A DNA stretch of 20,000 nucleotides from an uncultured virus (IMG/VR IMGVR_UViG_3300028805_000071) (taxonomy: Duplodnaviria > Heunggongvirae > Uroviricota > Caudoviricetes): IMG/VR virus record IMGVR_UViG_3300028805_000071. One strand, written 5' to 3'. The notes under the pieces are model-generated. The model was given only the letters and a program-made list of their open reading frames with translations, had not been told where the DNA came from and did not search any database. This document shows positions 1 through 18,640 of the stretch, piece by piece (positions within the stretch are counted from its first letter, which is position 1; every line of letters starts with the position of its first letter). The position numbers were made by a program, and so were the translations under genes.

Positions 1-770
1 TCCTCTTCTTCTTCGATAGGCTCTTCTTGTGGCTCTTCTGTAGGCTCAAGTTCTTCTTCAACAGAAGTAACTTCTAAATCTTTATTATCTTCCACAGATT
101 TTCCTCCTTCACTATTAATTCTATTTACCTGTTCAATTAGTGCAAATAATTTATTTTTAAAATCTTCATCAAATGAAAATTGAACCTTAGTAATTTGAGC
201 ACCTTCAAAGCAAGGCTCTACATCTTCGCCTAAAATGCACAATTTTGAGATAATAGCTTCATTAATAATAAAAAATTCGTAAAAATTATTATCATCTTCT
301 GTCCAAGTTCCTTTTAAAGAATTTGCATCTAATTCCATTGATTGATTGTTTCCTCTTTCGAGGATTCTCTGTGCCTCTGGATATTGTCCAGTCCAGAGAT
401 ACCCCTCAGTCATTAAATATTCATGCTCAACGCCGTCGTCCAGGAATTTCTGAAACCAAGCCTTTGCACCTAAATCTACAAACCCATATGGCTTTGTTGT
501 ATCAATTACATCAAACTTACCATTAGAGATATCAATAATTCTATTATGTTCTTCAAAATCATCCGTCTCTTTATTAAAGAAGCCAACGATAGGCGAACCG
601 GGTAAACTGTTCGCCATCTCTTTCGCTACTTCTTTAGTAATAACGCTACCGTTTCTATTAGGCTCTTCGCCAACATAACAAACTTTAATTTGACATTTAC
701 TAATTAAAGGGTTAATAGGTTGTAAATTTATTAATTCACAAGGAGTGTTTAATTTAATACTTGTATGCAT
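1..770 (-). CDS. Prohead protease / scaffold fusion (5' part; runs off the window edge)
   Basis: Missing from the ORF track because it has no stop in the window. ATG at 770-768 follows an AGGAGG overlapping the portal stop. Open frame MHTSIKLNTPCELINLQPINPLISKCQIKVCYVGEEPNRNGSVITKE...PIVG...EYLMTEGYLWTGQYPE...NQSMEL...LCILGEDVEPCFEGA then an acidic tail. Sits directly downstream of the portal. Confidence 0.75.
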   Translation of the reverse strand, partial: MHTSIKLNTPCELINLQPINPLISKCQIKVCYVGEEPNRNGSVITKEVAKEMANSLPGSPIVGFFNKETDDFEEHNRIIDISNGKFDVIDTTKPYGFVDLGAKAWFQKFLDDGVEHEYLMTEGYLWTGQYPEAQRILERGNNQSMELDANSLKGTWTEDDNNFYEFFIINEAIISKLCILGEDVEPCFEGAQITKVQFSFDEDFKNKLFALIEQVNRINSEGGKSVEDNKDLEVTSVEEELEPTEEPQEEPIEEEE

Positions 771-781: not shown

Positions 782-2401
782 CTAATTCTTTGACTCTTCA
801 TTAGCCAGAGTTTTATCGCTCTTTTCTGATTGCTCCTTCTCAGGGCGACCAGCAGAGTTCCCCTCTACATTACCTTCAGTTTTACCACTAGAAGATTGAG
901 ACTTGTTGCCCAAAACATCTGTGCTGGACATAGTAGATGACATAAGAGGTGGAATCATAATCTCACTCAGATGAAGCATATTGTTTTCAAAGAATGCAGT
1001 GTTGATAATATCGCTTTGTGAATGTCCAAGAGCGATTTGCGGTAACATTTTAGAATATCCAATTTGTACTTGCTCTTTGTACATCTTTGATAATTCTTTA
1101 TAATTATATTGTGTTGTTTCTAACATATATAATCTAAAGTTAAATTTTTTAGCATACTTTGGTTCAAGATACTCTTGAGTAAGTTTATCAAAGAAAATTC
1201 TAAACTGTAATAATAAATGGCGCATTGAACCTTCATCAGATAATACAGATTTTTCTAACGCAAGATTTCCATCTGTATTGAATAAGTTCTTTGAAACACC
1301 TAATGCATTATATACAGTTCTTTCAACTCTTTCTAATTGGTCATTTGCTTCACTAGCATTTGTATCACTAATATCGATAGATTCTACATCTGCAAAAGTA
1401 GTTAATACATCTACACCAATAGCACGACTTAACATCATAACCGCATTATTATGAATATCTGCGGCTTCATCAACGTCAAAAATTAAATCTCCATTTTTAT
1501 CTCTTGGTAATTTTTGAACTAAAATTTTCATTAACTGTTGTAATTGTTTACGACGGTCAATGTCTTGAGCATCATCTAAATCTAAAATATTAGGGATGGC
1601 GTTTACGAACAATGGTAAATCGTCGTCTCCTCCCATGTCATGCAGAGAGAATTTAATTACAGAACCTGGTTCTAATAAATACCAACTACCATATTGAACG
1701 CCCCACTCGTCTCTTGGTAATTTACCTTCTTTATATAACATATACCCCTTTGCAAATTCGGGCGGGAACATTTTTAAAACTCTCATACGATAAGCAGGGT
1801 CGGCAAATTCAGCATCAAATCATTGCATATTAAATTCAACAGCTGGTAAATTACCTACATAATATCTTACTCGACAATAATCAATAGGTAATTTTTGCAC
1901 TAAAAATCCATGATTGCCTTCAAATACATAACCATAATAACATCCGTCTAATATTACATCACGAGAAATCTTATTACATAAATTCTTTAAATATGAACTG
2001 TCTAAATAATTTAACACACGATTAAATTGTTCAATAAGTTTTTCCTCTTTTACCTTTTGGTCATATACCTCTGGCACAATGTACCAATCCCACCTATACA
2101 TATTAGCATAATAATCACATACCTTTTGATAAATTCCGTTAACTCTATAAAAATATCTTGAAATTTTTCTTAAAGTAGGTAAATCTTTTCTTGCTAATGC
2201 TCTTAATATAAAATGTTTATCGGCATACATGCGCTCTGGGCCATTAATATATCGATAATAATTACCTAATTGTATTGTCGCATCTTGTACTGTTTTTACG
2301 CCGATTTTAACTTTATTATACTCGGTTGGGAGGGGGCCATCAACTAAATTAAAACCTTTTTCATGGATGGTTTCTTGCTTTGTTTTTTCTTCGTCCATCA
2401 A
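782..2401 (-). CDS. Portal protein, 539 aa with TGA (1820-1822) read as Trp
   Basis: ORFs 1820..2401 and 782..1786 are in frame and joined by an open bridge (VEFNMQ*FDAEFADPAYRMRVLK). GGAGG RBS before 2401, TAG stop. Size and position between TerL and protease fit a portal. Confidence 0.8.
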
Positions 2402-2414
2402 TTAACCTCCTCAT

Positions 2415-2777
2415 TTAATTATTTCCATAAGCCTTTTGGATAATATAATCATAGGAAATTAAATTATCGTCCCAGTATGGAATTTCAACTAATGTAATAC
2501 CGTGCAATGCACAAAATCTTCTTTTCTTATTATCATTAAATTGTTGTTGATACAGGGCTTTTTTACCGCCAAATTTTGTACTTGCCTCATAATGCTGACG
2601 ACCTTGATATTCTATTAAAAAATCAATGCGGCCATCGTCATCAAATACGGCAAAGTCAAATCTTAACGGTTTACCATTGCTGGAGTTTAACCCCTCAAAT
2701 ACATACTCTTCTTTAAAGACTAAATTGGCATCGCGCAAAATCTCTTCAATTAAAATTTCTCCTCTACTAGCTCTCAT
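2415..2777 (-). CDS. PD-(D/E)XK / Vsr-like endonuclease-fold protein (120 aa)
   Basis: Motif LRFDFAV...LIEYQGRQHY...DNKKRRFC..HGITLVEIPYW is typical of small phage endonuclease-like proteins; tightly packed between TerL and portal. Confidence 0.65.
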   Translation of the reverse strand: MRASRGEILIEEILRDANLVFKEEYVFEGLNSSNGKPLRFDFAVFDDDGRIDFLIEYQGRQHYEASTKFGGKKALYQQQFNDNKKRRFCALHGITLVEIPYWDDNLISYDYIIQKAYGNN

Positions 2778-2786
2778 TTCATCCCC

Positions 2787-4514
2787 CTAATTCATAAACA
2801 TCCAATCTTTTGCATTAAACCGCTTATGTTTTCTATTCTCTTCTTCATGTTTAATATAATATAAACCATATTCCAACGCAGAGAATTTATCTTTTCGTAT
2901 TTTCTTATTTGCCTGTTTTAAATTAATATTTAATCCTTCATTTTCTTCACGCAAATTCAACATTTCTTCTTTTAAAATCGATGTAAGAGTAAATGGGCGT
3001 AAATATTCAGCTCTTTCTTCGGGCGTCATATTCTGGCCCACCTTTGTTCCTAATAATTTATTCTTTGCGTCTTTCTCATCAATTAAAAATTTAATTTTTC
3101 CAGCGTTTAATCTTGCTTGTACATTACTATGAGCGTCGCTGTTGATTGGTGCATTCGCTTTAATAATATATACAGCCTCTTGTTCAGTCTTTTTTGTCTT
3201 ATATTTATGATAAGAACCATCATTATCATTATAAATACCAAAATCAGGATATATATCCCCGGTAATAGGGTCTTCTTGCGACATAACCATCTCATCAATA
3301 AGACCAATACCAAGTCCATTACCATCTATAACCAATCTTCTTGCCTTATATTTATAATATAACTGCTTTAATTTAATCGCTTGATATTTAAAATGCTCAT
3401 CAGATAGTGTATAAATATTTACAACCGACGCAATTGAGTCTCCCATCGTTTGTGGATTTACTTTGAATACTATAGCAACTGAATCGCAGTCTTTACGACC
3501 AACGTCGACGCCAATAACATAATAACTTTGCGACCCACTGCGTTTAGAATACTCATATTCTGGCTTTTGGAGCTCGCGATTTCGGTCAAAAGCTTCTGCG
3601 CGGAAGAATGCGTCTTCGCTAGAGCCCGACCATTCAGATTCATACTCTCTAGAAAAGGCGGCGTCATTGAAAGAGCCGTCATTTTTAAGGTCTTGAATGA
3701 AATTTTTGCTTTGTAGACCCGTTAAAACAGGAATTCTTCAAGTTCCGCCCATTACAAAAGCTTTATCTGGCTCTGTAACCATCCAAACTAGGAATTGAAT
3801 GAGTTTATCATAACTAAAAGTGCCTTTTCAGCCAGCTGTGGTTACAAAAATTTGCGATTTATTTAATGTTTCATCATCGTGACGAGTTCCATCCATCGCT
3901 AAACGTGATACGTTCATAGTTGGTAAGATAACTGTAGATAAAATATCGCCATCTACGCCGACACACTCTTCAATTAAGCCTCCGTGGAAACGCTTACCAC
4001 GAGAACGCTCACTTGCGGCAACGTTTGTAAGCATCGAACCGCCCTTAAACATATAAATAACAGTATCTTTAGACTCACGTGTGCGTCCAGGACGTCTATC
4101 TAGCTCATTTTCAAAGGCTGGAATTAATGAACAAATTTCATTAACCTTATCTTTTGCGATACCAGCGGCCTGCTCTTTACCTCCAGAAGTAATAAACAGC
4201 TTACTACGGGGGTATAAAATACAACGGCACATTAAAATCATAATAGATAAGAATGATTTTGAATAGGCTCGAGGGAAAACCCCGTAGACATACTTATAAC
4301 GCATGGCCACTCGCAAGAAAATTCGTTGATAAAAATAAAAATGGAAGTTCTGCGGGTTGCCTTGCTCAAGCATAAAGTCTACAAATAAATCAGGGTATTC
4401 CCGCCAAAACGCAATATATTGACGAATGGCGGGTTTAACCGCTTCAATACGTTCTGGGGAAATACCTATTTTCTTTCGTTTCGTCGATAAATCTAATAAA
4501 TCTTGCAGAGCCAT
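2787..4514 (-). CDS. terL: Terminase large subunit, 575 aa with TGA at 3828-3830 and 3738-3740 read as Trp
   Basis: Walker A-like FPRAYSKS, Walker B GGLIEE, coupling motif VTTAG, then *KGTFSYDKLIQFLVWM...MGGT*RIPV...FSREYESEWSG, nuclease motif VIGVDVG, VIDGNGLG and KDKFSALEY. One continuous frame apart from two TGAs; ends in TAG. Confidence 0.92.
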
Positions 4515-5750
4515 TTAAAACACCTCCCCGGTGTCTAATAGCTTCTTTAAATATTCATCGTCAGCAGCTTCTTGCTCTTCTTCAAAGTCATTAAATTCAT
4601 TATAATCTTCTTCAGTAATAAATTCAGTGGAGTCCTCGGCAAAGATTTTTTCCTCAAACTCTTCATCGCTGCCCCAAACCTCATCTTCAGACACATCTTC
4701 TTCTTCAGCAGCTTTCTGTTTATCAGCATTAATATCTTGAACAGCTTTTTCAATTAAAGCGCCAAGGTGCGGGTCTTCAGAAATTAAACGACGAGTATAA
4801 TTTTGTAAATCTTCTAATACTCTATCCGCCTTATCCTGCGGTCCATCAGTGTAATAACGAGGAATAAAGCCATCTTGTTCGCAAATCATAACCAATTCAG
4901 AAACAGCATTTGCGTAATCACCATTTTCTGCTTTATTTTGCGCAGCGGTAAACTTGCCCGAACGCATTAATGCGTCATATACTTTACTAACCTTTTGGAA
5001 TCCATCAACATCACCGATATCCAAAAGCTGGTCCATCTTTAAAGAGGCTTTACAAATCTTCTTTAAAGTATCAATATGGCCAGCAGCTTGAATATCATAT
5101 GACTCCATCATGTCATTATAAAGCTGTTCCATTTTAACCCATTCTTCGGGTTTATAAAGAGCACCCCATTTTAAACGTAAATAGGTAACATCTTCATCAG
5201 TTAATCCTAAATCATCGGCAGAAGCCTCAGGAAGTTGAGACCAGCGCTCAACGGCATTCCCTGTTTCTTCTTCATCTTCTTCTGGCTCTTCATCAGGACG
5301 AGGCGGCATTTGAGTTCTGCCTTGTTCAATAGCAAGAGCTATGTCAGCAGCGTCGTATCCTTGGCGACGCATCGTGTCTTTAATTTTCGCATCCGCTAAT
5401 TCTTGTAAAAATTCTGTATCTTTCCAACGAAAATCTTTATATTGTTTAATTCTCATAGTGGAAATATACCGACCCAAGATAGTTTTACCGGAAACGTCTC
5501 TGCGATTGCGTCCGTATCGACTTAATAATTTATTTCATTGTTCTGGTATATATGGAATATCAAGTTCCTCTAAAACTGGTTTATAAGTTTCAGGGTCCCA
5601 GTTATCGATATGCATCGTAAGACAGTTCTTACATACATTCATAATTCCATCTTCTGGGTATTTTTCAAGATTATTAGAGCGATAGAAATTATCGGCACTC
5701 ATTGTTCGATGACATTTGTCGCAATAGTACAATTTTTCATCTAAACCCAT
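4515..5750 (-). CDS. 411-aa protein with N-terminal CxxC..CxxC zinc finger and acidic tail (TGA 5535-5537 = Trp); terminase small subunit candidate
   Basis: ORFs 5535..5750 and 4515..5477 are in frame with an open bridge PYIPEQ*NKLLSRYGRNRRDVSGKTILGRY. AGGAG RBS; stop abuts the terL ATG. The TerS call rests on position only. Confidence 0.7.
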
Positions 5751-5775
5751 ATTTTCGCTCCTTTCTTTTTTTTAT

Positions 5776-5802
5776 AAAAAAAGAGGTTTTTCACCTCTTT
5801 TT
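5776..5802 (-). terminator. Bidirectional intrinsic terminator-like hairpin
   Basis: AAAAAGAGGT-TTTTC-ACCTCTTTTT with T runs on both strands, between the 353-aa and 411-aa genes. Confidence 0.55.
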
Positions 5803-5821
5803 CTATATATTTTGGCTTTTT

Positions 5822-6883
5822 TTATATGTTTATTGATGTTTTTTGTCCATTTCTGCAATTTTTACAAATAGAATAAAATCCGTCTTTACTTGTATTGTTT
5901 TTACTGAAGTAACGTGAGTGCGCCAATTTCACTTTACCGCAACGACTGCAGCGTTTATATTTGCCTTTTTCTTTAAAAGTATAATACCAATTAAGAAAAT
6001 ATTCTTGCGATAAGTCTGAAATTAAATTAGGAATTTTCTTGCGCCATAATGAAGAAATATATTCTAAGGAGTGGGTTGTTCCAAATTCTTCGTCTAAAAC
6101 TTCTTGAATGGCTTGATTAGAGAGTCCATCAATTTTTAATTCAGTAATACGTAAAAGTAAAGGATGCGATTGAAGAGCGGCCCAAGAAATTGTATCAAAA
6201 TCTTGCATGATACACCATAAATCACTTGTGGGGTGTTCTCACGCATTTTGCTTTAAATTAGAATAATTGCATAAGATACCAGAGCAACATCTAGGGTCAC
6301 ATAAACTAATCCCGCTCCAGCGCACGGTCCCATCGGCTTCAACCCATTCTTCACTTTCCAGCTTTACTGTGCTGGGAAGGGAGTAGTGAATTGAATGGGC
6401 ATGAATTAAATACTCGCTTTTAATTTGATATTGTTGTTTACGAAAGTCAATTAATGCTTTCTTGGCGAGATACTTATTACGACCGGTCGCAGTTGCAGAA
6501 ATCTTTTTCCATGCTTCAATGGCTTCTTGCACCTCCCGCATTCCCGGGAGGGTATCAATATCATGCTGTGTAATTTTTTGTTTTGGTTGGAAAAGGATGT
6601 GCTTATTATCATTTTTAATTGCATAAATACCATCTTCGCCATTCTCGAATTTATCAGCTAATGCTTGATAAGATGTTTCGCGTTTGTTGATGGTTACCAT
6701 GCGGTTTTCTGTCAGGATTTTTTTCTGTTTGCGTTCTTCCTTTTCCATGCAGAAAATTAGATAGTCAGCTAACACTTCAAGGTCATCATTAGTAAGGTCA
6801 GGATTCTCAGCGACAATTTGTTCTACATACTCCTTGCGCGCTAAAGAACTTTCTAATGTGTAATCCAATTTTACTGTTATCAT
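5822..6883 (-). CDS. 353-aa putative DNA-binding regulator (C-terminal HTH-like segment plus CxxC..CxxC finger; TGA 6239-6241 = Trp)
   Basis: ORFs 6239..6883 and 5822..6208 are in frame with bridge NYSNLKQNA*EHPTSDLWCIMQDFD. GGAGG RBS at 6891-6895. Contains ELKIDGLSNQAIQEVL...EYISSLW (HTH-like) and CSRC...CKNC. Confidence 0.7.
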
Positions 6884-6939: not shown

Positions 6940-6968
6940 TTGACAAAATTATAAAAATTTGATATAAT
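6940..6968 (+). promoter_or_regulatory. Consensus sigma-A promoter, rightward
   Basis: TTGACA(6940)-17 bp-TATAAT(6963) with extended TG. Confidence 0.85.
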
Positions 6969-7005: not shown

Positions 7006-7209
7006 ATGGAATTAATATCAAAAGAAGAATTAATTAAAGAATTAAAAGGCTCGGTATTAATGATGAGAGATATTCCCACCTGGCCGCCCACATATGAAGA
7101 TACTAATATTTTTCATATTATAGATAAAATACCAGTTATTGAAGTAGATGAAGATGTAATGCCTCCCTGCGCATGGGGCGACAGTTGTGCATACTACACT
7201 TCAGAGTAA
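7006..7209 (+). CDS. Hypothetical protein, paralog family A (N-terminal part only)
   Basis: MELISKEELI...IDKIPVIE resembles the genes at 7447, 10554 and 10940. Confidence 0.7.
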   Translation: MELISKEELIKELKGSVLMMRDIPTWPPTYEDTNIFHIIDKIPVIEVDEDVMPPCAWGDSCAYYTSE

Positions 7210-7221
7210 GGAGATAGGTAA

Positions 7222-7434
7222 ATGGCAAAACTTAAATTTGATATACAAGAAAGTTCGCCACTTATTAAATTTGGCGCACTACAAGAAGGTGAAATATTTT
7301 TGTATCATAATGCACCTTTTATAAAAGCAAACGATAATCACGTACCTAATTTAGTTAATGGCTGTTGGACGTTAATTGATGATGATGAACTTGTTACTTA
7401 CGTCAAATCTGCTGAATTAAAATTAACGATATAA
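7222..7434 (+). CDS. Hypothetical protein (70 aa)
   Basis: RBS-like AGGAGATAGG; tiles in the operon. Confidence 0.7.
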   Translation: MAKLKFDIQESSPLIKFGALQEGEIFLYHNAPFIKANDNHVPNLVNGCWTLIDDDELVTYVKSAELKLTI

Positions 7435-7446
7435 TAAGAGGAAAAA

Positions 7447-7710
7447 ATGGATTTAATATCAAAAGCTGAGGCAATTAGCGCAATAGATAATATGAGAGCG
7501 CAGCCGGACGAAGATGGATATTTATTAATTTATAAAATGGATGCAGTAGATAATATTAGATGTTTACCAGTACAAGAACCTAAACGAGGCTATTGGATAG
7601 TCGATAAAGATAATATTGGATGTTCAGAATGTGATACGTGGTATATATCAAAGTACATGACGCACAGGAACTTTTGTCCTAATTGCGGAGTATTAATGGA
7701 GGAAGAATAA
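7447..7710 (+). CDS. Zinc-ribbon protein, paralog family A
   Basis: MDLISKAEAI...LPVQEPKRGYW...CSEC...FCPNCG; GAGG RBS. Confidence 0.8.
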   Translation: MDLISKAEAISAIDNMRAQPDEDGYLLIYKMDAVDNIRCLPVQEPKRGYWIVDKDNIGCSECDTWYISKYMTHRNFCPNCGVLMEEE

Positions 7711-7711
7711 T

Positions 7712-7918
7712 ATGGAAGTAGCAATAAAACCTTGTCCTTATTGCGACGATGCTTGGGTATATGCTTCTGTTGGAGATTATGGAAGTGGATATGAAAGTTA
7801 TGGCTATCGAATGCAGTGCAGATGTGGGTTTGCTTGGAAAACTATCAACTGGCATGATAACAAAGATGAGGCGATAAAGGAATGGAATGCGGAGGTGTCT
7901 AATGATAGCAATTCCTAA
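7712..7918 (+). CDS. Lar-like (restriction alleviation family) zinc-finger protein
   Basis: IKPCPYC...CRCG...EAIKEWN resembles the Lar-family pattern KPCPFCG...CxxCG...A...WN; GGAGG RBS. Confidence 0.6.
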   Translation: MEVAIKPCPYCDDAWVYASVGDYGSGYESYGYRMQCRCGFAWKTINWHDNKDEAIKEWNAEVSNDSNS

Positions 7919-8201
7919 TATAGATAAGCCGCAGCGTTGTCAAGAATGCCCGGCACATACATTTAACTATGGATATATTCCAGGTGACAATGGTTGTCGC
8001 ATTTTGAAACGTGCATTCAATATAGATAAGTTAGATATAAACCCTTTTAATGAAGTTCTTCCCGATTGCCCGTTAATCGACATTGTAGAATGTTGGGAAT
8101 GCGAATATTATAGGGGCCATGAAGAATATTGTGATATAGACCAGTTTGCAAGAGAACATGGTTTTTGCTATAGCGGAAAAAGGAGAAACAATGGCGTATA
8201 A
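7902..8201 (+). CDS. Cys-rich hypothetical protein (99 aa)
   Basis: GGAGG then ATG at 7902; MIAIPNIDKP..CQECP...CPL..IVECWECEY...C...FC. Confidence 0.75.
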   Translation: MIAIPNIDKPQRCQECPAHTFNYGYIPGDNGCRILKRAFNIDKLDINPFNEVLPDCPLIDIVECWECEYYRGHEEYCDIDQFAREHGFCYSGKRRNNGV

Positions 8202-8376
8202 ACAATTATGTGACATTTGTGGGCAGGAAATCCACGAGGTGTATTTCGACCCAAGGAAATTCAAGTACAAGCGAAGAATATTCGGCACTTATGAAACGGT
8301 GGACATCTGTCAAGAATGTGCAGAAGAAATGGAGAAATACATTAGAGAAAGGAAAAAGAATGGCGCAACTGATTAA
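8191..8376 (+). CDS. CDIC..CxxC zinc-finger protein, paralog family C (61 aa)
   Basis: AGGAG RBS before ATG 8191; CDICG...DICQECAEE, similar to the gene at 10327. Confidence 0.75.
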   Translation: MAYKQLCDICGQEIHEVYFDPRKFKYKRRIFGTYETVDICQECAEEMEKYIRERKKNGATD

Positions 8377-8869
8377 AGCACCGAGCCAAGAAGAGCCTAA
8401 ATACATTTCTGTATTTTTAGCAGGAGGTATCACTAACTGTAAGAATTGGCAGAAAGAAGTCGAGAAATATCTCTCTAATATAAAAAAGATTTCTGTTATT
8501 AACCCACGGAACGATAAATTTGATGTTACAAATGAACAAGCATCAAAGAATCAGATACAGTGGGAGTTTGACCGATTGGAAAAGGCAGACATATTTAGTA
8601 TGTACTTTTGCAATAGTGACTCGGTTCAGCCCATATGTCTTTATGAACTTGGAAGAAATATAGTCCGTATGCAGCAGAGATTCCCAAACGATTGGGAGGA
8701 CAGAATAATTATAAGCGTAGAAAACGGATACTCAAGAGAGTTCGACGTGATTATGCAGACAAAGTTGTGCGCATCAAGGCTATTAGTATTTACAAATGCT
8801 AGTCCTTATTCTCACGCAGTAAAAATAGATGAGAAAGTAACAAAGATAAGGAGCAACGATGATATATAA
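8360..8869 (+). CDS. Nucleoside 2-deoxyribosyltransferase-like protein (169 aa)
   Basis: VFLAGGIT..WQ...INPR...QIQWE..LEKAD...YF...QPICLYELG motif set; AAGGA RBS before ATG 8360. Confidence 0.75.
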   Translation: MAQLIKAPSQEEPKYISVFLAGGITNCKNWQKEVEKYLSNIKKISVINPRNDKFDVTNEQASKNQIQWEFDRLEKADIFSMYFCNSDSVQPICLYELGRNIVRMQQRFPNDWEDRIIISVENGYSREFDVIMQTKLCASRLLVFTNASPYSHAVKIDEKVTKIRSNDDI

Positions 8870-9137
8870 GAAATACCAGGCAAACCACGAAGAAGAGAAA
8901 ATAGAAACAGACGGGTGTAATGGATGTAAATATATTTTTGTACAGACCTGGGAAGAACCATGCAGACGATGTAAGCGTACCGCAAAGGACTTATATGAAA
9001 GGGCAAGTAATGAGATAAAACAAACGATAGAGGTATCTATTGAATCACTCAATGCTGATAGAGAAACAAATCGTAAAATATTAGACGATATTAAATCAGG
9101 CAAAGGATTACCGCCGATAAAAATGGAGGGAAGATAA
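8859..9137 (+). CDS. Hypothetical protein with CxxC..CxxC (92 aa)
   Basis: AGGAG RBS; overlaps its neighbours in operon fashion. Confidence 0.7.
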   Translation: MIYKKYQANHEEEKIETDGCNGCKYIFVQTWEEPCRRCKRTAKDLYERASNEIKQTIEVSIESLNADRETNRKILDDIKSGKGLPPIKMEGR

Positions 9138-9415
9138 TGAGCTTAATACTTGAAGGCATAGACCTGCCGAAAGGCGAGACAGCAGAAGTAATAATTCGCA
9201 TTCAGCCGAATGGAGATATAAAAGATGGGCACGGAATATTATTAACAGAAACAAAAGCCACGCAGATATCCACCCCACACGGAAGGTTAATAGATGGCGG
9301 CAAACTTGACAAACTTGTTCATGAATGGAGTCCCGTCTATACATATGGAAGAAGTGCATTTACCAGAGCGATAGAAAATGCACCCACGATATTAAAAGCA
9401 GAAGGAGAATGGTGA
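9137..9415 (+). CDS. Hypothetical protein, paralog family B
   Basis: MSLILEGIDLPK...HGRLID...IENAPTILKAE; ends in TGA overlapping the next ATG (TGATG). Confidence 0.8.
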   Translation: MSLILEGIDLPKGETAEVIIRIQPNGDIKDGHGILLTETKATQISTPHGRLIDGGKLDKLVHEWSPVYTYGRSAFTRAIENAPTILKAEGEW

Positions 9416-9702
9416 TGTCGTTTATAGTAAAGGGCATTGATTTACCAAAGGATAATAATAGTTTAGACATTCATATTTTTAATGGAAAAGTGGAAGTAGT
9501 ACATCCGTTAGACGCTTGTGAATTAGCGCATATTAATGGCGAAGCTATCCAGATTCCTAAAGGCCATGGAGATATTAAAGATGTTAGTAAATTGCGCGTT
9601 AGCGAATATGATTGCGAGGGAGAGGTTAGTTGGTACACTATAAGGGCAGTGGATACGTGGGATATTGAGAATGCTCCAACGATATTAGAAAGTGAGAAAT
9701 AA
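9415..9702 (+). CDS. Hypothetical protein, paralog family B
   Basis: MSFIVKGIDLPK...IQIPKGHGDIKD...IENAPTILESE. Confidence 0.8.
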   Translation: MSFIVKGIDLPKDNNSLDIHIFNGKVEVVHPLDACELAHINGEAIQIPKGHGDIKDVSKLRVSEYDCEGEVSWYTIRAVDTWDIENAPTILESEK

Positions 9703-9703
9703 G

Positions 9704-9997
9704 ATGCAAATAGTAATAGATATACCTAATAGTGATATTACATCAAAACAAAATATTATAAATCTTGATTTGCATTTTATTGATGGACATATTTGCGAAT
9801 GCACCTATCCGTTTAAAGAACTACCCAAAGAACATGGAAAGCTGATAGACGCAGATGAAACAAGAAAGCAATATTACCAATGGATGGAAGAGTTATTACA
9901 ATCAACAACCATTAATATGTCCGCAGAGGCGTTGAGTTTATTATGCGGATTCACTTTAATAAATAATGCCCCGGCAGTATTAGAAGCAGAGGAGTAA
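9704..9997 (+). CDS. Hypothetical protein, paralog family B
   Basis: MQIVIDIP...LPKEHGKLIDAD...INNAPAVLEAEE. Confidence 0.8.
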   Translation: MQIVIDIPNSDITSKQNIINLDLHFIDGHICECTYPFKELPKEHGKLIDADETRKQYYQWMEELLQSTTINMSAEALSLLCGFTLINNAPAVLEAEE

Positions 9998-9998
9998 A

Positions 9999-10325
9999 AT
10001 GAGTTTAGTAATAAAAGGAATTAATAAACCAAAGGAAGGCGAAATGGTCGTTATAGGAATACAAGCGACAGACGCAGTTATTGATACTTGGGAAACCAGC
10101 GAAATAGATGGAGAAGACGTATTTGTAAAACGAGAACATATTAAACACGCTGATATTATTCAAATTCCAGAGGAGCATGGAGATATTAAAGATATCAATA
10201 CTTTTGTAAAAGATAAAAGTATATACGAATGCATTGAAAATGATGTATTTAACAAGAAATATACTTATTTGGTTGGTGTAGGTGCTATATATAATGCGCC
10301 AACGATTTTAGAAGCGGAGGAGTAA
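9999..10325 (+). CDS. Hypothetical protein, paralog family B
   Basis: MSLVIKGINKPK...IQIPEEHGDIKD...YNAPTILEAEE. Confidence 0.8.
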   Translation: MSLVIKGINKPKEGEMVVIGIQATDAVIDTWETSEIDGEDVFVKREHIKHADIIQIPEEHGDIKDINTFVKDKSIYECIENDVFNKKYTYLVGVGAIYNAPTILEAEE

Positions 10326-10326
10326 T

Positions 10327-10554
10327 ATGGAAGTAACATGTTGTGACATTTGCCGCAAACCTTTAACTCGTAAAGGATATAAAGACCAAGACGGCAAGGA
10401 TTGGAGAGATATAAGTTTTAGAGAACGCAAATATAGTACAAGGATATTCTCATTTGTAAAAAGCGCATTTGATACCGAATATATATCCGTGTGCGGATAT
10501 TGTCGTTCAGAATTAGCAAAACATAATCCTAGGGAAGGACTAAAGGGAGAATAA
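10327..10554 (+). CDS. Zinc-finger protein, paralog family C
   Basis: CCDICRK...SVCGYCRSEL; GGAGG RBS. Confidence 0.75.
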   Translation: MEVTCCDICRKPLTRKGYKDQDGKDWRDISFRERKYSTRIFSFVKSAFDTEYISVCGYCRSELAKHNPREGLKGE

Positions 10555-10850
10555 TGATAGGATTAATATCCAGAGATGAAGCAATTAAACAAATAGACGA
10601 AGCGTTTGACGTTGGTGGATGTTATTGTGATAAATATGCAATCCGAGGCATATTAAGAAGCCTTCCCACTATAGAAGAACGCAAAGAGGGGAGATGGGTA
10701 AGAATCACTCAAGACGTGGGTGTAGGACCTCATCTATATAAGTGTAGTGAATGTCATAGAGTTATTGAATATAGTAGTTCCGAACTCCCCTGCTTGTTGG
10801 AGATGAAGTTTCCTTACTGTCATTGCGGAGCAAAGATGAGAGGAGAATAA
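10554..10850 (+). CDS. Zinc-ribbon protein, paralog family A
   Basis: MIGLISRDEAI...LPTIEERKEGRW...CSEC...YCHCGAKM. Confidence 0.8.
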   Translation: MIGLISRDEAIKQIDEAFDVGGCYCDKYAIRGILRSLPTIEERKEGRWVRITQDVGVGPHLYKCSECHRVIEYSSSELPCLLEMKFPYCHCGAKMRGE

Positions 10851-10851
10851 T

Positions 10852-10926
10852 ATGGGAGACAAGTTTTATAAATATTTCTTTTATATTATAGGGGTAATGG
10901 CAATCTTGAAATTTATATTAGGATAG
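10852..10926 (+). CDS. 24-aa single-helix membrane peptide
   Basis: AGGAG RBS; MGDKFYKYFFYIIGVMAILKFILG fills the gap between two genes. Confidence 0.55.
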   Translation: MGDKFYKYFFYIIGVMAILKFILG

Positions 10927-10939
10927 ATAGGAGAATAAT

Positions 10940-11212
10940 ATGGAATTAATATCAAGACAAGACGTAAAGGACACGATTAAACGCAAACCCTTTTCTTTGA
11001 TTGATGAACGAATACTAATGAATACCATTGATTCTATCCCCACTGTAGAAGAACGGAAAGAAAGTGAATGGATAATCCTTAAAGAACCTACCGGGGGACT
11101 ACCGAAAAGATGGCGAGTTAAATGTCCGATTTGTCGTAAAACATTAAGAATAAGAGATAAAGAATTATGGGAGTTTTGTCCTTGTTGTGGAACAAGGATG
11201 GGGAAAAAATAA
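10940..11212 (+). CDS. Zinc-ribbon protein, paralog family A
   Basis: MELISRQDV...IPTVEERKESEW...CPIC...FCPCCGTRM. Confidence 0.8.
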   Translation: MELISRQDVKDTIKRKPFSLIDERILMNTIDSIPTVEERKESEWIILKEPTGGLPKRWRVKCPICRKTLRIRDKELWEFCPCCGTRMGKK

Positions 11213-11213
11213 A

Positions 11214-11462
11214 ATGAAAACAATAGAACAAGTACGTGAAGAAACAAAATTAGGCGATGTATTTATAGGCGAAGTATTTACTTTAGAAGAATTTATGGAA
11301 GAGGTAGACCGTGGCAGCATCACCGAATACGACGGCATTGGCTATTTCCATGATGGGGAAAAAGAAACTGCTATTAGCGTGTTTTCTCCTATATGGTTTA
11401 AATACAACAGCGTCGATGAAGTTATAGAACAATTTCCATATGTAATTTGGTATAATAAATAG
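11214..11462 (+). CDS. Hypothetical protein (82 aa)
   Basis: ATG 1 nt after the previous stop; tiles in the operon. Confidence 0.7.
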   Translation: MKTIEQVREETKLGDVFIGEVFTLEEFMEEVDRGSITEYDGIGYFHDGEKETAISVFSPIWFKYNSVDEVIEQFPYVIWYNK

Positions 11463-11471
11463 GAGAATGAT

Positions 11472-11666
11472 ATGATAGAAATTTCAGAATGGGAATTAGC
11501 AAGACTTCGAGAGCATGACAAAAGTTATTATGAATTAAAACAAGAAAAGGAAGATTTATGTTCTGCATTAGCTCCTATATTTAAACAACTGATTGAAAAC
11601 TTAGATGATGAAACTTTATATAAGTTAAAAACAGATATGGGCCAGGCGTGTCTATATTATGACTGA
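11472..11666 (+). CDS. Hypothetical protein (64 aa; TGA stop in frame with the next gene)
   Basis: AGGAG RBS; ends in TGA at 11664-11666. Confidence 0.7.
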   Translation: MIEISEWELARLREHDKSYYELKQEKEDLCSALAPIFKQLIENLDDETLYKLKTDMGQACLYYD

Positions 11667-11690
11667 ACAAAAGTAGATAAGGAAAATAAT

Positions 11691-11882
11691 ATGGTAAAAG
11701 CAAATGACGTAGAAATTTATATAAAATGGTATGGTTCTAATGGGTTTGGCGAATACAATATTTGGACAGACACAGAGGGCCGCATTAAAGGCGATTCTGA
11801 GTATATGGACAAAGGCGACAAAAAAGATTTTTTGAAAAGTTTATTTGACTCTATTTTAGAGCAGATTGAGATAGTTGGATAA
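11691..11882 (+). CDS. Hypothetical protein (63 aa)
   Basis: AAGGA RBS; tiles in the operon. Confidence 0.65.
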   Translation: MVKANDVEIYIKWYGSNGFGEYNIWTDTEGRIKGDSEYMDKGDKKDFLKSLFDSILEQIEIVG

Positions 11883-12103
11883 TGGGAATAATAGACGATA
11901 TAAATAAATTGCACCAGGTTGGATTACAGAATGGAGTGGAATATAAGACGTTAAGAATTAATAGGGAATTATTGGATAAACTTGAAGCGGAGATAAATGG
12001 GTTCGTGCAGCCGGCGACGCTAGATAATTCGATAGCGACGTTGTTCGGTATGAAAATAGAGCCAGTAGAGGACTCAGACTATTGTTATATATTGGAGGAT
12101 TAG
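11882..12103 (+). CDS. Hypothetical protein (73 aa)
   Basis: TAATG overlap with the previous gene. Confidence 0.7.
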   Translation: MGIIDDINKLHQVGLQNGVEYKTLRINRELLDKLEAEINGFVQPATLDNSIATLFGMKIEPVEDSDYCYILED

Positions 12104-12104
12104 T

Positions 12105-12248
12105 ATGGGGATAGCGTTTTTGATGGCGGTAGGGTTTGCGGCTTTCTTCGTGCTGGGGTATACTCTGGGCCATATGGCAGGGTTTAACCACGGCCATGAG
12201 GCAGGTATCGAGGAAGAACGCGACAGGTATTGCCGGATGGGGCCTTGA
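12105..12248 (+). CDS. 47-aa membrane protein
   Basis: GGAGG RBS; MGIAFLMAVGFAAFFVLGYTLGHMAGFNHGHEAGIEEERDRYCRMGP; TGA stop lies inside the next -35 box. Confidence 0.65.
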   Translation: MGIAFLMAVGFAAFFVLGYTLGHMAGFNHGHEAGIEEERDRYCRMGP

Positions 12249-12273
12249 CAAAATTAAAAATAAATGTTATAAT
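12245..12273 (+). promoter_or_regulatory. Consensus sigma-A promoter
   Basis: TTGACA-17-TATAAT with extended TG. Confidence 0.85.
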
Positions 12274-12302
12274 TTATATATAAAGTGAAAGGAAAAAAAT
12301 AA

Positions 12303-12506
12303 ATGGATAACGGAGCAACAGTAGGAAAAATGTTCTATAGAGGCCAAGAGTACGAGGCTCATCTGGACGCAGAAGGAAACTTATTGGTGCCGTCATTCTT
12401 TAAAGATGGCTCTGAGTTAATTGTGTATTATGTGAAGGTGCCGGTGGAGCTCCTGGAGACCATATATACAATGACCAAGCAGAGATATGAACTTGAAAAT
12501 TTATAA
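12303..12506 (+). CDS. Hypothetical protein (67 aa)
   Basis: Own promoter and AAAGGA RBS. Confidence 0.7.
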   Translation: MDNGATVGKMFYRGQEYEAHLDAEGNLLVPSFFKDGSELIVYYVKVPVELLETIYTMTKQRYELENL

Positions 12507-14283: not shown

Positions 14284-14400
14284 TGTTATAAGTATGCAAA
14301 AAAATGTATAAAAAAACTTTTAAAAAAAGTATTGACAAATTGCTAAAGGTATGATAATATATAATTACAAAAGGGAGAGAAAACAAAGAGAGGTAACAAG

Positions 14401-14649
14401 ATGTATACAGTAACAAATGACGCAAAGGCAAAGACAATCAACGAAAACACAAAGTATGTTGCAATCGCACCGCTTCTTGAAACTGTTATAAATATGTCAA
14501 AGGACAAGGCTCCTTACACAGTGCTTACTGTTGGAGCAACACTCGAAGAGGTTGAGATGTTCGCTTCTTCCGATTGGATGATGGCTCACGCAATCGTTGA
14601 TGGTTGGTGGACAATCGTAACAATCGATGAAATAACAATCAATAACTAA
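14401..14649 (+). CDS. Early hypothetical protein (82 aa)
   Basis: Own promoter, GAGAGGT RBS, terminator directly after. Confidence 0.8.
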   Translation: MYTVTNDAKAKTINENTKYVAIAPLLETVINMSKDKAPYTVLTVGATLEEVEMFASSDWMMAHAIVDGWWTIVTIDEITINN

Positions 14650-14670
14650 AAAAGGCGAAAGCCTTTTTTT
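14648..14670. terminator. Bidirectional intrinsic terminator
   Basis: AAAAAAGGC-GAAA-GCCTTTTTTT. Confidence 0.8.
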
Positions 14671-14683
14671 ATTTGCGTCGTGG

Positions 14684-14697
14684 CGAACATACGTTCG
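14684..14697. promoter_or_regulatory. Perfect Firmicute LexA box
   Basis: CGAAC-ATAC-GTTCG. Confidence 0.75.
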
Positions 14698-14745
14698 GTT
14701 AGTCACCGCTAACCAATAGGCACATTCCCCTCTTCCATCATCCTC

Positions 14746-14774
14746 ATTATAACATAAAACCGCAAGGCTGTCAA
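14746..14774 (-). promoter_or_regulatory. Consensus antisense sigma-A promoter
   Basis: TTGACA-17-TATAAT with extended TG on the minus strand. Confidence 0.8.
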
Positions 14775-14867
14775 TAGAAAAAATAAAAAAAATTTTTTTA
14801 AAAAAGTATTGACAAACCCTCTTCAGTGTGCTATCATTATTATAGAAAGAAGAGAGGAGAACAAACA

Positions 14868-15299
14868 ATGAGAATTTGGTTAGACATGGACGGAACAATC
14901 GCAGACCTTTACGGAGTAGAAAACTGGCTCCCTATGTTAGAAGCAGAAGACCCTACACCTTACGCAATCGCAAGACCGCTTGTGAGAATGAACATTCTCG
15001 CAAGATTGTTAAATAAGGCACAGAGAAACGGCTATGAAATTTGCATCGTGTCCGCACTCTCAAAGAACGGCTCCGCAGAGTATGGGCAGAAAGTAATCAA
15101 CGCAAAGTTAACTTGGTTACAGACCCACCTCGCAAGCGTAAAGTTTGACGAAATCCAGTTCGTATCTTACACCTACACAAAGAACAATGTAAATAGTGGA
15201 AATGATATTCTTTTCGATGATGAAGAGAGACACCTCACCGCTTGGACGGGTGAAGCCTACAACGCAAGAAACATTTTAGAGGTTTTAAGAAACCTCTAA
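14868..15299 (+). CDS. HAD-superfamily phosphatase, 5'(3')-deoxyribonucleotidase-like (143 aa)
   Basis: IWLDMDGTIAD (motif I), IVS (II), K..WL (III), ILFDD (IV); GAGGAG RBS. Confidence 0.8.
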   Translation: MRIWLDMDGTIADLYGVENWLPMLEAEDPTPYAIARPLVRMNILARLLNKAQRNGYEICIVSALSKNGSAEYGQKVINAKLTWLQTHLASVKFDEIQFVSYTYTKNNVNSGNDILFDDEERHLTAWTGEAYNARNILEVLRNL

Positions 15300-15379
15300 T
15301 TTTTTTTATAAAAAAGGCTTGACAGAACACCAAAAGGATGATATAATAAAGGTACAGAAAACGAAAGGAGACCAAAGCA

Positions 15380-15553
15380 ATGAAGGAAGTTATAGGAATT
15401 GTAATCTTAAGTTTAATCGTTTTATTGGTAGTCGCCTCAATCGCATTTTTACTGTGGTTTGGCGTTTCATGGGCTTCGATAATGTTTCAAAATCTCGACA
15501 TGGACGAGCCCACGGTATTAAGTTCGTGGAATCTATTTTCATTCATTGGATAG
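15380..15553 (+). CDS. 57-aa membrane protein
   Basis: Promoter 15319, AAGGAG RBS, MKEVIGIVILSLIVLLVVASIAFLLWFGVSW...; terminator follows. Confidence 0.75.
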   Translation: MKEVIGIVILSLIVLLVVASIAFLLWFGVSWASIMFQNLDMDEPTVLSSWNLFSFIG

Positions 15554-15554
15554 G

Positions 15555-15580
15555 AAAGAGGGCAAAGCCCTCTTTTTTCT
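15555..15580 (+). terminator. Intrinsic terminator
   Basis: AAAGAGGGC-AAA-GCCCTCTTTTTT. Confidence 0.8.
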
Positions 15581-15813
15581 GTTGTCGGTCAACTATTCCG
15601 AAAATTAATTTTTAGGGAATAGTTGGGCTTTTGGGCTTTTGGCAAGGGTTTTTTCTGTCAAGGAACTATTCCCAAAATTAGTTTTTAAGGAATAGTTGAC
15701 CGACCCCAATTCACTTTAGCGAATTAAAGCGTGAAAGAAAAAATTTTTAAAAAAGGGCTTGACAAACAAGCCTTTTTCTGTTATACTATAATCAGAAAGA
15801 GAGGTAAAGACAA

Positions 15814-15984
15814 ATGACTACATTCGCACTTAACATTTTAATCATAACAGTAATACTTTTAATGGGTTTCGCCATTGGAATGATAATTATTGAACTAATC
15901 AAAACCGCAAAGTTTCGCAAAGAGGTAAAAGCCACAAACGAGGCTTTAAAAGATTACGCAGAACATTGTTTGAAAAAATTTTAA
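15814..15984 (+). CDS. 56-aa membrane protein
   Basis: Promoter 15759, GAGAGGT RBS, MTTFALNILIITVILLMGFAIGMIIIELIK... Confidence 0.75.
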   Translation: MTTFALNILIITVILLMGFAIGMIIIELIKTAKFRKEVKATNEALKDYAEHCLKKF

Positions 15985-16055
15985 AAAAAGGGGTTGACAA
16001 ACCCTTTTTTTCATGCTATAATAAACTCAAGAAAAGACAAAGAGAGGTAAACAAA

Positions 16056-16196
16056 ATGAAGTATTACACAGTACAGTGGTTCGACAAAGAACTTGGAGAA
16101 ATCTACAACACAATCACAAGCGAAAAGGGAGTTGCTTACATGCAGAAGCACCCCGAAGTGTATGACATTCTTCTGTTAGATATTTACACCGAATAA
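16056..16196 (+). CDS. 46-aa hypothetical protein
   Basis: Promoter 15994, GAGAGGT RBS, MKYYTVQWFDKELGE... Confidence 0.75.
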   Translation: MKYYTVQWFDKELGEIYNTITSEKGVAYMQKHPEVYDILLLDIYTE

Positions 16197-16261
16197 AAAA
16201 AAGGGGTTGACATTCAACCCCTTTTCTGTTATAATAAAGACAGAAAGAGAGGTAAAGACAA

Positions 16262-16459
16262 ATGACAATCCACAATATTGATAACACATTCTATGACTCA
16301 GAAATGAGCGTAAAAGAACTTATTGAATACTTAAAAGAAAACTATGACGAAAATAATAGGGTCACTTGGTTTATGCAAAAGACTCTTCCAAACAGAGATT
16401 TTCATAGAATTTACATTGATTCAGATGATTATTACATTGAAAAAGAAGAAGAGAGGTAA
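16262..16459 (+). CDS. 65-aa hypothetical protein
   Basis: Promoter 16207, GAGAGGT RBS; internal MSVKELIEYL resembles the start of the 16682 gene. Confidence 0.75.
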   Translation: MTIHNIDNTFYDSEMSVKELIEYLKENYDENNRVTWFMQKTLPNRDFHRIYIDSDDYYIEKEEER

Positions 16460-16464
16460 ATAAA

Positions 16465-16623
16465 ATGACAATTTACGGACTTAATAAGAAAGCAACAAAA
16501 GGCTTATACATCGTATACACAATAACTGAAGGAAGAAAGTATTTCTTGAGTGCTTGGAGAACAGAAGAAGACGCAAACAAAAGAGCAAAAAAATATTTTG
16601 GAAAAGTTTGGAAAAACTGTTGA
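16465..16623 (+). CDS. 52-aa basic hypothetical protein
   Basis: GAGAGGT RBS; MTIYGLNKKATKGLYIVYT...; TGA stop inside the next TTGACA. Confidence 0.7.
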   Translation: MTIYGLNKKATKGLYIVYTITEGRKYFLSAWRTEEDANKRAKKYFGKVWKNC

Positions 16624-16681
16624 CAAACCCCCAAAAGAGTGATATAATAAAGGTACAAAGAGAGAAAGAGAGGAAATAAAA

Positions 16682-16867
16682 ATGACAGTAAAGGAATTAA
16701 TCACAAGACTTGAAGCAGTAGAAAATAAAGATTTGGATGTAGTCATCAATAGCGATGATTACGGCAATGTAGTTGTTACCTATGTCTCGGAAATAGAAGT
16801 ATACTACGGAAGAGATGAGGACACGGGTTGGTACTGTGATACAAGAGAATGTGTTTTACTCGAATAA
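16682..16867 (+). CDS. 61-aa acidic hypothetical protein (MTVKELI type)
   Basis: Promoter 16620, GAGAGG RBS. Confidence 0.75.
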   Translation: MTVKELITRLEAVENKDLDVVINSDDYGNVVVTYVSEIEVYYGRDEDTGWYCDTRECVLLE

Positions 16868-16944
16868 AAAATTTTAAAAAGGGCTTGACAGAGCCCTTTT
16901 TCTATGATATAATAAAGATAAGAAAAGAGAAAGGAAAGAAAAAA

Positions 16945-17112
16945 ATGTTTATACTTGGAATTTTAGTAGGATGGTTTATAGTTTATTTAGGAGCAACAAT
17001 TTGTTGCAACGCTTTTGATAAGGAAGAGTGGATGTCCTATTGGGTTGTTGGCCCGTTTCTCCCTCTTCATTTAGGAATCGGCTATATATATAATAAGTTA
17101 AGAAAAAAATAA
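16945..17112 (+). CDS. 55-aa membrane protein
   Basis: Promoter 16885, AAAGGA RBS, MFILGILVGWFIVYLGA... Confidence 0.75.
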   Translation: MFILGILVGWFIVYLGATICCNAFDKEEWMSYWVVGPFLPLHLGIGYIYNKLRKK

Positions 17113-17182
17113 AAAAAGGGTTGACAAACCAACAGAAAGATGTTATAATAAACTCAAGAAAAGAGAAAGAGAGGAAAAAACA

Positions 17183-17511: not shown

Positions 17512-17543
17512 AAATTACATTTTGACTGTATTTGTTTTCATTT

Positions 17544-18579: not shown

Positions 18580-18588
18580 GGCAAACCA

Positions 18589-18639: not shown

Positions 18640-18640
18640 G

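Follow-up and report, generated by a model that had tools for sequence, protein, structure and literature searches.

What does an in-frame TGA encode in the packaging and head genes of a gut phage, and does it help to set the time at which those genes yield protein? The question is raised by a 20,000-nucleotide stretch of DNA from an uncultured tailed virus (IMG/VR record IMGVR_UViG_3300028805_000071; Caudoviricetes), hereafter the window, in which four genes between positions 782 and 6883, including those for the large terminase subunit (TerL) and the portal protein, are interrupted by TGA codons. A preliminary description of the window had located five such codons, proposed that UGA is read as tryptophan and suggested a role as a translational timer. 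The coordinates of all five codons proved exact, and the four genes lie on the minus strand. The comparisons below establish, at the level of sequence, that UGA stands for tryptophan in the late genes of this phage and that sense UGA is confined to them. The features concerned are as follows, each sense TGA being assigned from its homologue column.

5822..6883, minus strand: sigma-factor-like regulator, 353 amino acids (aa), opening the leftward module (phrog_5767 'sigma factor', E 8.8e-47); one sense TGA
6239..6241, minus strand: sense TGA, codon 215 of the sigma-like gene
5778..5802, no strand: palindromic hairpin, possible terminator, between the sigma-like gene and the next gene (consensus scan only)
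4515..5750, minus strand: 411-aa protein directly upstream of TerL (phrog_3314, unknown function, E 3e-55); one sense TGA
5535..5537, minus strand: sense TGA, codon 72 of the 411-aa gene
2787..4514, minus strand: TerL, 575 aa, identified by tblastn to annotated TerL; two sense TGAs
3828..3830, minus strand: sense TGA, TerL codon 229, directly after TTAG
3738..3740, minus strand: sense TGA, TerL codon 259
2415..2777, minus strand: HNH/homing-type endonuclease, 120 aa, between TerL and portal (phrog_9084, E 3e-28); no TGA; conserved in relatives
782..2401, minus strand: portal protein, 539 aa (phrog_2739, E 2.6e-84); one sense TGA
1820..1822, minus strand: sense TGA, portal codon 194
3..770, minus strand: 5' portion of a 435-aa gene of the virion module (phrog_3313), free of TGA

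Under code 11, the standard one for bacteria, the region 782-6883 falls into nine fragments. With TGA read as Trp (code 4) these become four long open reading frames (ORFs) and an intact HNH gene, and the coding density of window positions 1-7000 rises from 0.927 to 0.968. The four long ORFs are broken by TGA only, with their frames intact and no indels, and the five genes end in TAG, TAA, TAG, TAA and TAA, bearing out the earlier observations that the frames are otherwise undisturbed and that every true stop is TAA or TAG. There are 22 TGG codons in 782-6883 and 25 if the partial gene at 3-770 is included, in agreement with the hand count of about 25 TGG against 5 TGA, and the contexts TTAG*K, GGT*RIP and PEQ*NK are present. 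Assembly error was excluded: at the five sites, TGA or a natural TGG variant is found in independent assemblies (L004/G002, L003 and L025), and contigs from an RNA library (X13, from which only pieces with zero differences were used) span 1706-2111 and 5880-6307, and thereby two of the sites, with 0 differences.

The window could be extended with a near-identical virus record of 61,251 bases (G001; 99.98% identity over 19,140 bases), which contains window positions 1-19,140 and runs 42 kb further into the virion module. CheckV placed the completeness of G001 at 36% and the full genome at about 160-170 kb; its G+C content is 35.4%. The available DNA of the window's phage, namely the window, G001 and a 52-kb record (G002), amounts to about 36% of the genome, and the lysis and replication genes lie outside it. 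A megablast search for near-identical phage records returned none, exact 39- and 40-mers from both ends matched nothing in IMG/VR, and a metagenome scan to lengthen the genome gave just a 4.5-kb contig and G002 again; no longer contig came to light. Sheep and goat gut metagenomes from 10 studies contain DNA of the window, and the window itself may have come from one of these studies.

We compared the five sites across 48 loci, some of them near-copies, from relatives drawn from IMG/VR, metagenome contigs and GenBank phages. The codons found at each site were as follows.

Portal codon 194, 30 loci: TGA 1, Trp (TGG) 5, Phe (TTY) 16, Tyr (TAY) 8
TerL codon 229, 47 loci: TGA 3, Trp (TGG) 4, Phe (TTY) 6, Tyr (TAT) 34; all aromatic
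TerL codon 259, 47 loci: TGA 2, Trp (TGG) 39, Tyr (TAT) 6
411-aa gene codon 72, 33 loci: TGA 1, TGG 32 (standard-code cultured phages among them)
Sigma-like gene codon 215, 26 loci: TGA 1, TGG 19, TTT 1, GAA 1, GAT 1, AAA 1, TAG 2

With the holders of TGA or TAG left out, the residue is aromatic in 29/29, 44/44 and 45/45 loci at the portal and two TerL sites, Trp in 32/32 at codon 72 and aromatic in 20/23 at codon 215, a column that varies in the wider family. Trp or another aromatic residue thus occupies 170 of 173 homologue cells, and the alignment check proposed for the Trp reading came out in its favour at all five columns. Neither Cys nor Gly occurs at these columns among the aligned homologues, and Rfam at gathering thresholds found no family, selenocysteine insertion sequence (SECIS) elements included, in the 61 kb of G001; selenocysteine and code 25 (TGA=Gly) are therefore excluded.

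Close relatives gave a second line of evidence for the identity of the codon. Between G001 and G002 (82-98% identity by block), 101 TGG and 14 TGA codons are shared, nine codons are TGA in one genome and TGG in the other, and two pair TGA with another sense codon (TCA, TTA). The contig L003 adds two swaps and the 98%-identical contig L025 adds three, for a total of 14 swaps at 13 distinct codons, in both directions; across the close-relative comparisons only five TGA partners are neither TGA nor TGG. Two of the 13 swap codons are among the window's five sites, portal codon 194 being TGG in L003 and L025 and TerL codon 259 being TGG in L025. Homologue columns and swaps together support the assignment of UGA to Trp well.

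The proposal that five UGAs gate four genes was right as to the sites and the genes but too narrow, because the window covers no more than the beginning of a recoded late module of 49 kb. The late region of G001 gives 68 ORFs at a density of 0.902 under code 11 and 29 ORFs at 0.971 under code 4, so that code 4 was the denser in this region as well as in the window. Among the products of its virion module are structural proteins of the virion, a tape measure of 2571 aa and a number of large tail proteins. The 28 late genes of G001 contain 47 sense TGA and 154 TGG codons, TGA making up 23% of late Trp codons (5/30 in the late genes of the window); 13 of the 28 hold at least one sense TGA, and none needs TGA as its own stop. 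The numbers per gene reach 8 in a 448-aa gene, 8 in the tape measure and 11 in a 1742-aa gene, and the first TGA of a gene lies anywhere from codon 22 to 639, not clustered at gene starts. The capsid-region genes (G001 18371-21520) have 0 TGA in 11 Trp codons. The base after a sense TGA is a purine in 41/47 cases versus 96/154 for TGG (G001 late genes L021-L024; Fisher p 0.001), T and C being depleted at position +4. All Trp codons of the 448-aa gene (L022 6796-8142 = G001 26796-28142), which lies just upstream of the tape measure, are TGA (8 TGA, 0 TGG), and the gene had no PHROG or Pfam match.

The rightward genes of the window are organised differently, and we regard them as early.

6940..6968, plus strand: perfect TTGACA-17-TATAAT promoter with a TG extension (12/12 consensus match), driving the rightward early genes
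7006..12506, plus strand: 19 small early ORFs; no sense TGA; two TGA stops (9413-9415, 11664-11666)
14300..19986, plus strand: early module of 14 small ORFs led by Shine-Dalgarno (SD) motifs, with repeated sigma-A-type promoters; two TGA stops (16621-16623, 17318-17320)

The 33 early ORFs (2695 codons) contain 56 TGG and no sense TGA, a zero that is partly by construction because they were called under code 11, and their stops are TAA in 26, TGA in 4 and TAG in 3. TGA accounts for 47/201 late versus 0/56 early Trp codons (Fisher p 3e-6), and the partition is also seen with the window's own late genes (5 TGA and 25 TGG versus 0 and 56; Fisher p 0.004). Two of the early TGA stops are tied to the start of the next gene: the TGA at 9413-9415 overlaps the ATG of the next paralogue as TGATG and stops at the usual C-terminus of its family, and at 17318-17320 the TGA shares bases with the following ATG in the sequence ATGA. 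Because of these stops and overlaps and the lack of early sense TGA, we take UGA to signal a stop in early genes and to encode Trp in late ones, which agrees with the earlier expectation that recoding is concentrated in late genes. The family mentioned consists of four tandem paralogues (window 9137-10325, plus strand; about 92-108 aa) with the pattern MSxIxxGIDLP...APTILxAE and ends APTIL/APAVL-x-AE; three of the four start MSxIxxGI[DN], the first ends in TGA, and the one member searched had no PHROGs family match.

Between 14,300 and 19,760 on the plus strand there are at least 11 promoter units, each with an A/T-rich upstream element, TTGACA, 17 nt and TATAAT, followed by an AGAGAGG-type ribosome-binding site and an ORF of 40-82 aa, and this module looks like one of the host-takeover type. 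SD motifs (GGAGG/AGGAG) precede nearly all genes. The sigma-A promoters, strong SD motifs, early TGA stops and the hosts of cultured relatives point indirectly to a standard-code, Firmicutes-type host. Two HAD-like nucleotidase genes lie within the early module (14868-15299 and 18175-18579). Window positions 13220-13660 are A/C-rich and of low complexity (imperfect ACACA-type repeats), with no convincing ORF on either strand. TGA-bearing ORFs on the minus strand of 12,500-20,000 are of low complexity and without PHROG hits; they resemble antisense noise and were left out of the gene counts.

If UGA is read as Trp late in infection, a decoder would be expected, and the preliminary description had suggested searching for a tRNA-Trp(UCA), a tryptophanyl-tRNA synthetase (TrpRS) or a release factor. 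The outcome of that search was mixed: none was found in the sampled 36% or so of the genome, but tRNA(UCA) is present in relatives (G012, G018, G019 and G021). Near-complete relatives carry 22-32 tRNAs. G012 (177.8 kb, 95% complete) is the closest near-complete TGA-recoded relative; its TerL is 72% identical to that of the window and its late module is collinear with G001. Between the endolysin and holin genes of a lysis cassette, at the end of the recoded module, it encodes a tRNA of 95 nt that has the anticodon UCA, G73 and a long extra arm (L205 1498-1592; G012:58415-58506, minus strand). A pattern built on this tRNA matches 25 IMG/VR contigs, and ARAGORN calls tRNA(UCA) in nine of the ten that were checked. 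Five tRNA(UCA) records were searched for TerL, and three hold one that is 59-60% identical to that of the window, in one case with four TGAs. Because tRNA(UCA) occurs in related genomes of the same TerL family, we infer that the window's phage carries a UCA tRNA in its unsampled part and would depend on the TrpRS of the host for charging it. A search with a UCA pattern resembling tRNA-Trp, modelled on the D-arm of TAG-lineage relatives, gave 0 hits, and probing the tRNA side through a conserved neighbour protein of the relatives G003 and G004 yielded no contigs beyond those already collected.

A 93-kb contig with a tRNA(UCA), G017, was considered as the missing part of the genome and rejected. 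It has no DNA overlap with G001 52,000-60,000 or window 12,500-20,000, no TerL, and a G+C content of 29.9% versus 35.4%, and for these reasons it is probably a second TGA-recoding phage. Its 12-kb scanned locus (L246-L250) holds 25 tRNAs including tRNA(UCA), its replication module is collinear with that of G012, and its metagenome identifier has the same prefix as that of G002. Among TAG-recoded relatives, G006 has a CUA suppressor (L064 412-505) whose length of about 95 nt, long extra arm and G73 give it a class-II shape like that of the G012 UCA tRNA; this shape of the UCA and CUA suppressors differs from that of ordinary tRNA-Trp or tRNA-Gln. The TAG-recoded G004 has no CUA suppressor among the loci checked, and a 79-nt tRNA-like gene in its tRNA array (L063 655-733) has an irregular anticodon loop, reported by ARAGORN as 'tRNA-???' with a two-base anticodon.

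The TerL family to which the window belongs is diverse in its use of stop codons. By tblastn, the window's TerL is 48.9% identical to that of Geobacillus virus E3 and 46.1% identical to that of Enterococcus phage H1, with 146 phage records matched in all; a search against PDB sequences gave no match at E<=1. A wider scan of 80 TerL loci found in-frame TGA in 9, TAG in 63 and TAA together with TAG in 1; the other 7 have no in-frame stop. In a TerL tree of 36 rows, from which rows with TerL over several high-scoring segment pairs or with fewer than 380 residues were omitted, a TGA lineage (4 rows) and a TAG-Tyr lineage (3 rows) each form a 100/100 clade, and the code label changes at least four times.

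The second of these lineages is a sister lineage in which TAG appears to be read as tyrosine. In-frame TAG aligns with Tyr, not Gln, in L005, L006, L019, L020 (the record G007, loci L095-L096), L028 and L033. The 23 in-frame TAGs of G007 (38.7 kb) align in G001 with Tyr 12 times, Trp 3, Phe 2, Glu 2, Cys 1 and a gap 3 times. Further homologues were available for 16 of its TAG sites; nine fall in columns that are 81-100% Tyr (e.g. 36/36 and 25/25), three in Phe and two in Trp columns. These alignments suggest that UAG encodes Tyr in this lineage, in whose fragments no tRNA was found. In the literature searched, no report based on alignments assigns TAG to Tyr in phages; in the account of Kienbeck et al. 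(PMC10879173), a Tyr isotype is predicted for 1.1% of 180 phage suppressor tRNAs.

Late-gene TGA-to-Trp recoding in gut phages of standard-code Firmicutes, cited as a precedent in the preliminary description, is indeed on record. Borges et al. (bioRxiv 10.1101/2021.08.26.457843) describe TGA as Trp in structural and lysis genes of the Agate clade of large Firmicutes phages of animal guts, DNA replication genes in standard code (Agate, crAss-like), TAA-rich stops and clades mixing codes 11, 15 and 4; as given there, a suppressor tRNA was detected in just 35% of code-4 genomes. The same preprint puts forward the hypothesis that recoding times late and lysis proteins, and describes a bias towards lysis genes. 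Measured against this published description, the window's phage is similar in its structural genes with TGA=Trp, standard early genes, large genome, gut habitat, probable Firmicutes-type host, TAA-dominated stops and close relatives with other codes, and differs in the sparseness of its recoding (23% of late Trp codons). Its late-restricted recoding, as judged from sequence comparison, matches the Agate-type kind, and because of this match we regard the phage as a further example of a known phenomenon. A 2025 preprint (PMC12636597) describes experiments showing that Trp is inserted at UGA by a phage's TrpRS:tRNA(UCA) pair.

Three further systems are instructive for comparison. phAss-1, of the proposed Phassvirus group (Babkin et al. 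2023, PMC10607447), is described as a human gut siphophage of about 136 kb with TAG reassigned to Gln; it belongs to the same TerL family (43.9% identity), its TerL, portal and tape measure genes are recoded, and by the published account it has a large tRNA set with suppressors and its authors found no synthetase. It differs from the window's phage in that TAG is read as Gln, versus TGA as Trp here, and in its human gut origin. The cultured Enterococcus phage H1/EF1, Geobacillus virus E3 and Alicyclobacillus phage KKP_3916 (120-141 kb) have the same order of zinc-ribbon gene, TerL and portal, with TerL 46-49% identical, but no in-frame stops, and carry Trp, Tyr or Phe at the four aligned columns; at the fifth, sigma-like codon 215, Enterococcus phage H1 was the only one to align, and it has Lys. 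Code 4 of Mycoplasma and Spiroplasma gives UGA the identical meaning but applies genome-wide and never uses UGA to terminate, whereas here the reading is confined to late genes and UGA ends 4/33 early ORFs.

The gene at the head of the leftward module may bear on regulation. Its 353-aa product has a C-terminal CxxC...CxxC zinc ribbon and 1079 relatives at E<=1e-3. An AlphaFold2 model (predicted local distance difference test score 87.8) aligned over residues 202-301 with sigma-H (3mzy_A; Z 7.0, root-mean-square deviation 3.1, 76 aligned) and WhiG (7lq4; Z 6.4; VIA), both below the trust level of Z 8. An NCBIfam sigma model matched weakly (E 0.098), Pfam gave nothing, and Foldseek on the model gave no clear match. 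The protein is therefore described here as sigma-like, a candidate sigma factor. Because the hairpin at 5778..5802 lies after the gene, it may be a transcription unit of its own. Recoding affects the gene in all three kinds of lineage, TGA, TAG-Gln and TAG-Tyr, which favours a regulatory reading. The neighbouring 411-aa protein (4515..5750) has, in translation, a zinc ribbon at its N-terminus and an acidic tail at its C-terminus.

Taken together, we think it likely that the window comes from a large virulent-type siphophage of a standard-code, Firmicutes-like gut host, in whose late genes UGA is a minority codon for Trp, decoded by a predicted phage tRNA(UCA) that may gate the synthesis of late proteins. 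Early genes would be transcribed from host sigma-A-type promoters and read in the host's code, having no sense UGA and some UGA stops. Late messages would give full-length protein only once the phage tRNA(UCA), encoded as in related genomes but in the unsampled two thirds of this one and presumably charged by host TrpRS, outcompetes release factor 2 (RF2). Suppressor decoding might in this way delay or gate late-protein synthesis.

Several points weigh against this reading, in addition to the partly built-in zero of the early genes. One early pair, 11472-11666 and 11691-11882, would fuse under code 4, the only one to do so, and is without distant homologues. A search of the window, G001 (61 kb) and G002 (52 kb) for tRNAs of whatever kind came up empty, as did one for release-factor or class Ib synthetase (TrpRS or tyrosyl-tRNA synthetase) domains in G001, G003, G006, G012 and G013. 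The UCA tRNA of the relatives, with its long extra arm and G73, is shaped more like Ser or selenocysteine tRNAs than like tRNA-Trp. The lone hint of a host is a weak one, a TAG-recoded relative binned in a Clostridia metagenome-assembled genome. Finally, 15 of the 28 late genes, including the capsid-region genes and the last three, have no TGA, and because so many late genes lack it UGA cannot be a uniform gate.

The last point leads to the explanation that competes best, in which UGA does encode Trp but the split between early and late genes serves no regulation. After a suppressor tRNA had arisen, TGG would drift to TGA under A+T pressure in genes translated from then on; early genes would keep TGG since they have to be translated while the tRNA is still missing, and highly expressed virion genes would avoid a slowly read codon. 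Usage is accordingly sparse and differs from one near-identical genome to another, the 13 swap sites showing changes in both directions. These two-way swaps, the TGA-free capsid-region genes and the first TGAs scattered far from gene starts suit a neutral history at least as well as a regulatory one, and the early/late partition that fits a putative translational timer fits simple constraint too. What speaks for more than drift is that late genes of G012 use TGA for the majority of their Trp codons (22 TGA versus 6 TGG in its tape measure), that the sigma-like regulator is recoded in three lineages with different codes, and that Borges et al. (10.1101/2021.08.26.457843) describe the bias towards lysis genes. 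We hold an absence of regulation to be possible, if rather doubtful.

The remaining explanations fare worse. It may be that no dedicated suppressor exists and that a host or phage tRNA-Trp(CCA) reads UGA inefficiently, the sparse UGAs throttling the yield. In Bacillus subtilis, tRNA-Trp(CCA) is capable of such low-efficiency reading of UGA; the lack of tRNAs in 61 kb and the one or two TGAs per recoded gene in the window are in line with this idea, and the excess of purines after sense TGA may reflect the avoidance of strong RF2 contexts. However, essential late proteins carry 8, 8 and 11 TGAs, so that the yield of leaky read-through would be negligible, and related genomes do carry tRNA(UCA), which makes this mechanism quite unlikely. 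Less likely still is a host that itself uses code 4, as Mycoplasma does, with no switch at all. The G+C content of the phage is low (35%), as such a host would allow, but there is no sense TGA among 56 early Trp codons, and 4/33 early ORFs end in TGA, two with TGATG or ATGA overlaps. Even in late genes TGG outnumbers TGA three to one and TGA occurs in just 13 of the 28, sister lineages of the same TerL family use TAG or the standard code, and cultured relatives infect Enterococcus, Geobacillus and Alicyclobacillus. Artefact or decay in the form of assembly errors, pseudogenes, selenocysteine or TGA=Gly, for which nothing speaks beyond the in-frame stops themselves, can be dismissed given the same TGAs in independent assemblies and RNA-library contigs, the intact frames free of indels, the Trp, Phe or Tyr and never Cys or Gly at the five sites, and the empty Rfam/SECIS search of 61 kb.

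Returning to the reading of a sparsely recoded phage with late-restricted UGA=Trp, comparison with G012 suggests where it may stand in a wider series. The TGAs of G012 align with Trp of G001 at 32/62 non-gap positions and its replication genes have no or nearly no TGA, but it is recoded far more heavily. It is plausible, though we advance it tentatively, that the window's phage represents the young, sparse end of a natural series that runs from the standard code, through a stage with 23% of late Trp codons written as UGA, to one in which UGA supplies most of them, as in G012, beside lineages with UAG=Gln and UAG=Tyr. Because the sigma-like regulator is recoded in all three lineages, late transcription itself, and not just translation, could perhaps also be held back until the suppressor tRNA is available.

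Recoding also leaves traces in the annotation of TerL genes. phrog_15503 matches residues 11-206 of the window's TerL and phrog_24618 residues 350-565; both are families of 'unknown function', and they look like the halves of a TerL split at recoded stops by standard-code gene calling. In L006, L015, L017, L018, L019 and L020, the TerL frame is interrupted by inserts of about 0.3-1.2 kb between conserved blocks, e.g. after residue 83 or 291. The TerL insert of Enterococcus phage EF1 has an annotated HNH homing endonuclease, and introns or inteins are the likely identity of the inserts in the relatives; no such insert breaks the window's TerL.

For the biology of these phages, the window adds one more case of late-gene-restricted TGA-to-Trp recoding, which by itself opens no new question. 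Gene calling in the standard code shatters the TerL, portal and tail genes of this phage and its relatives. The presence of close relatives at different stages and with different codes makes the group useful material for studies of stop-codon capture.

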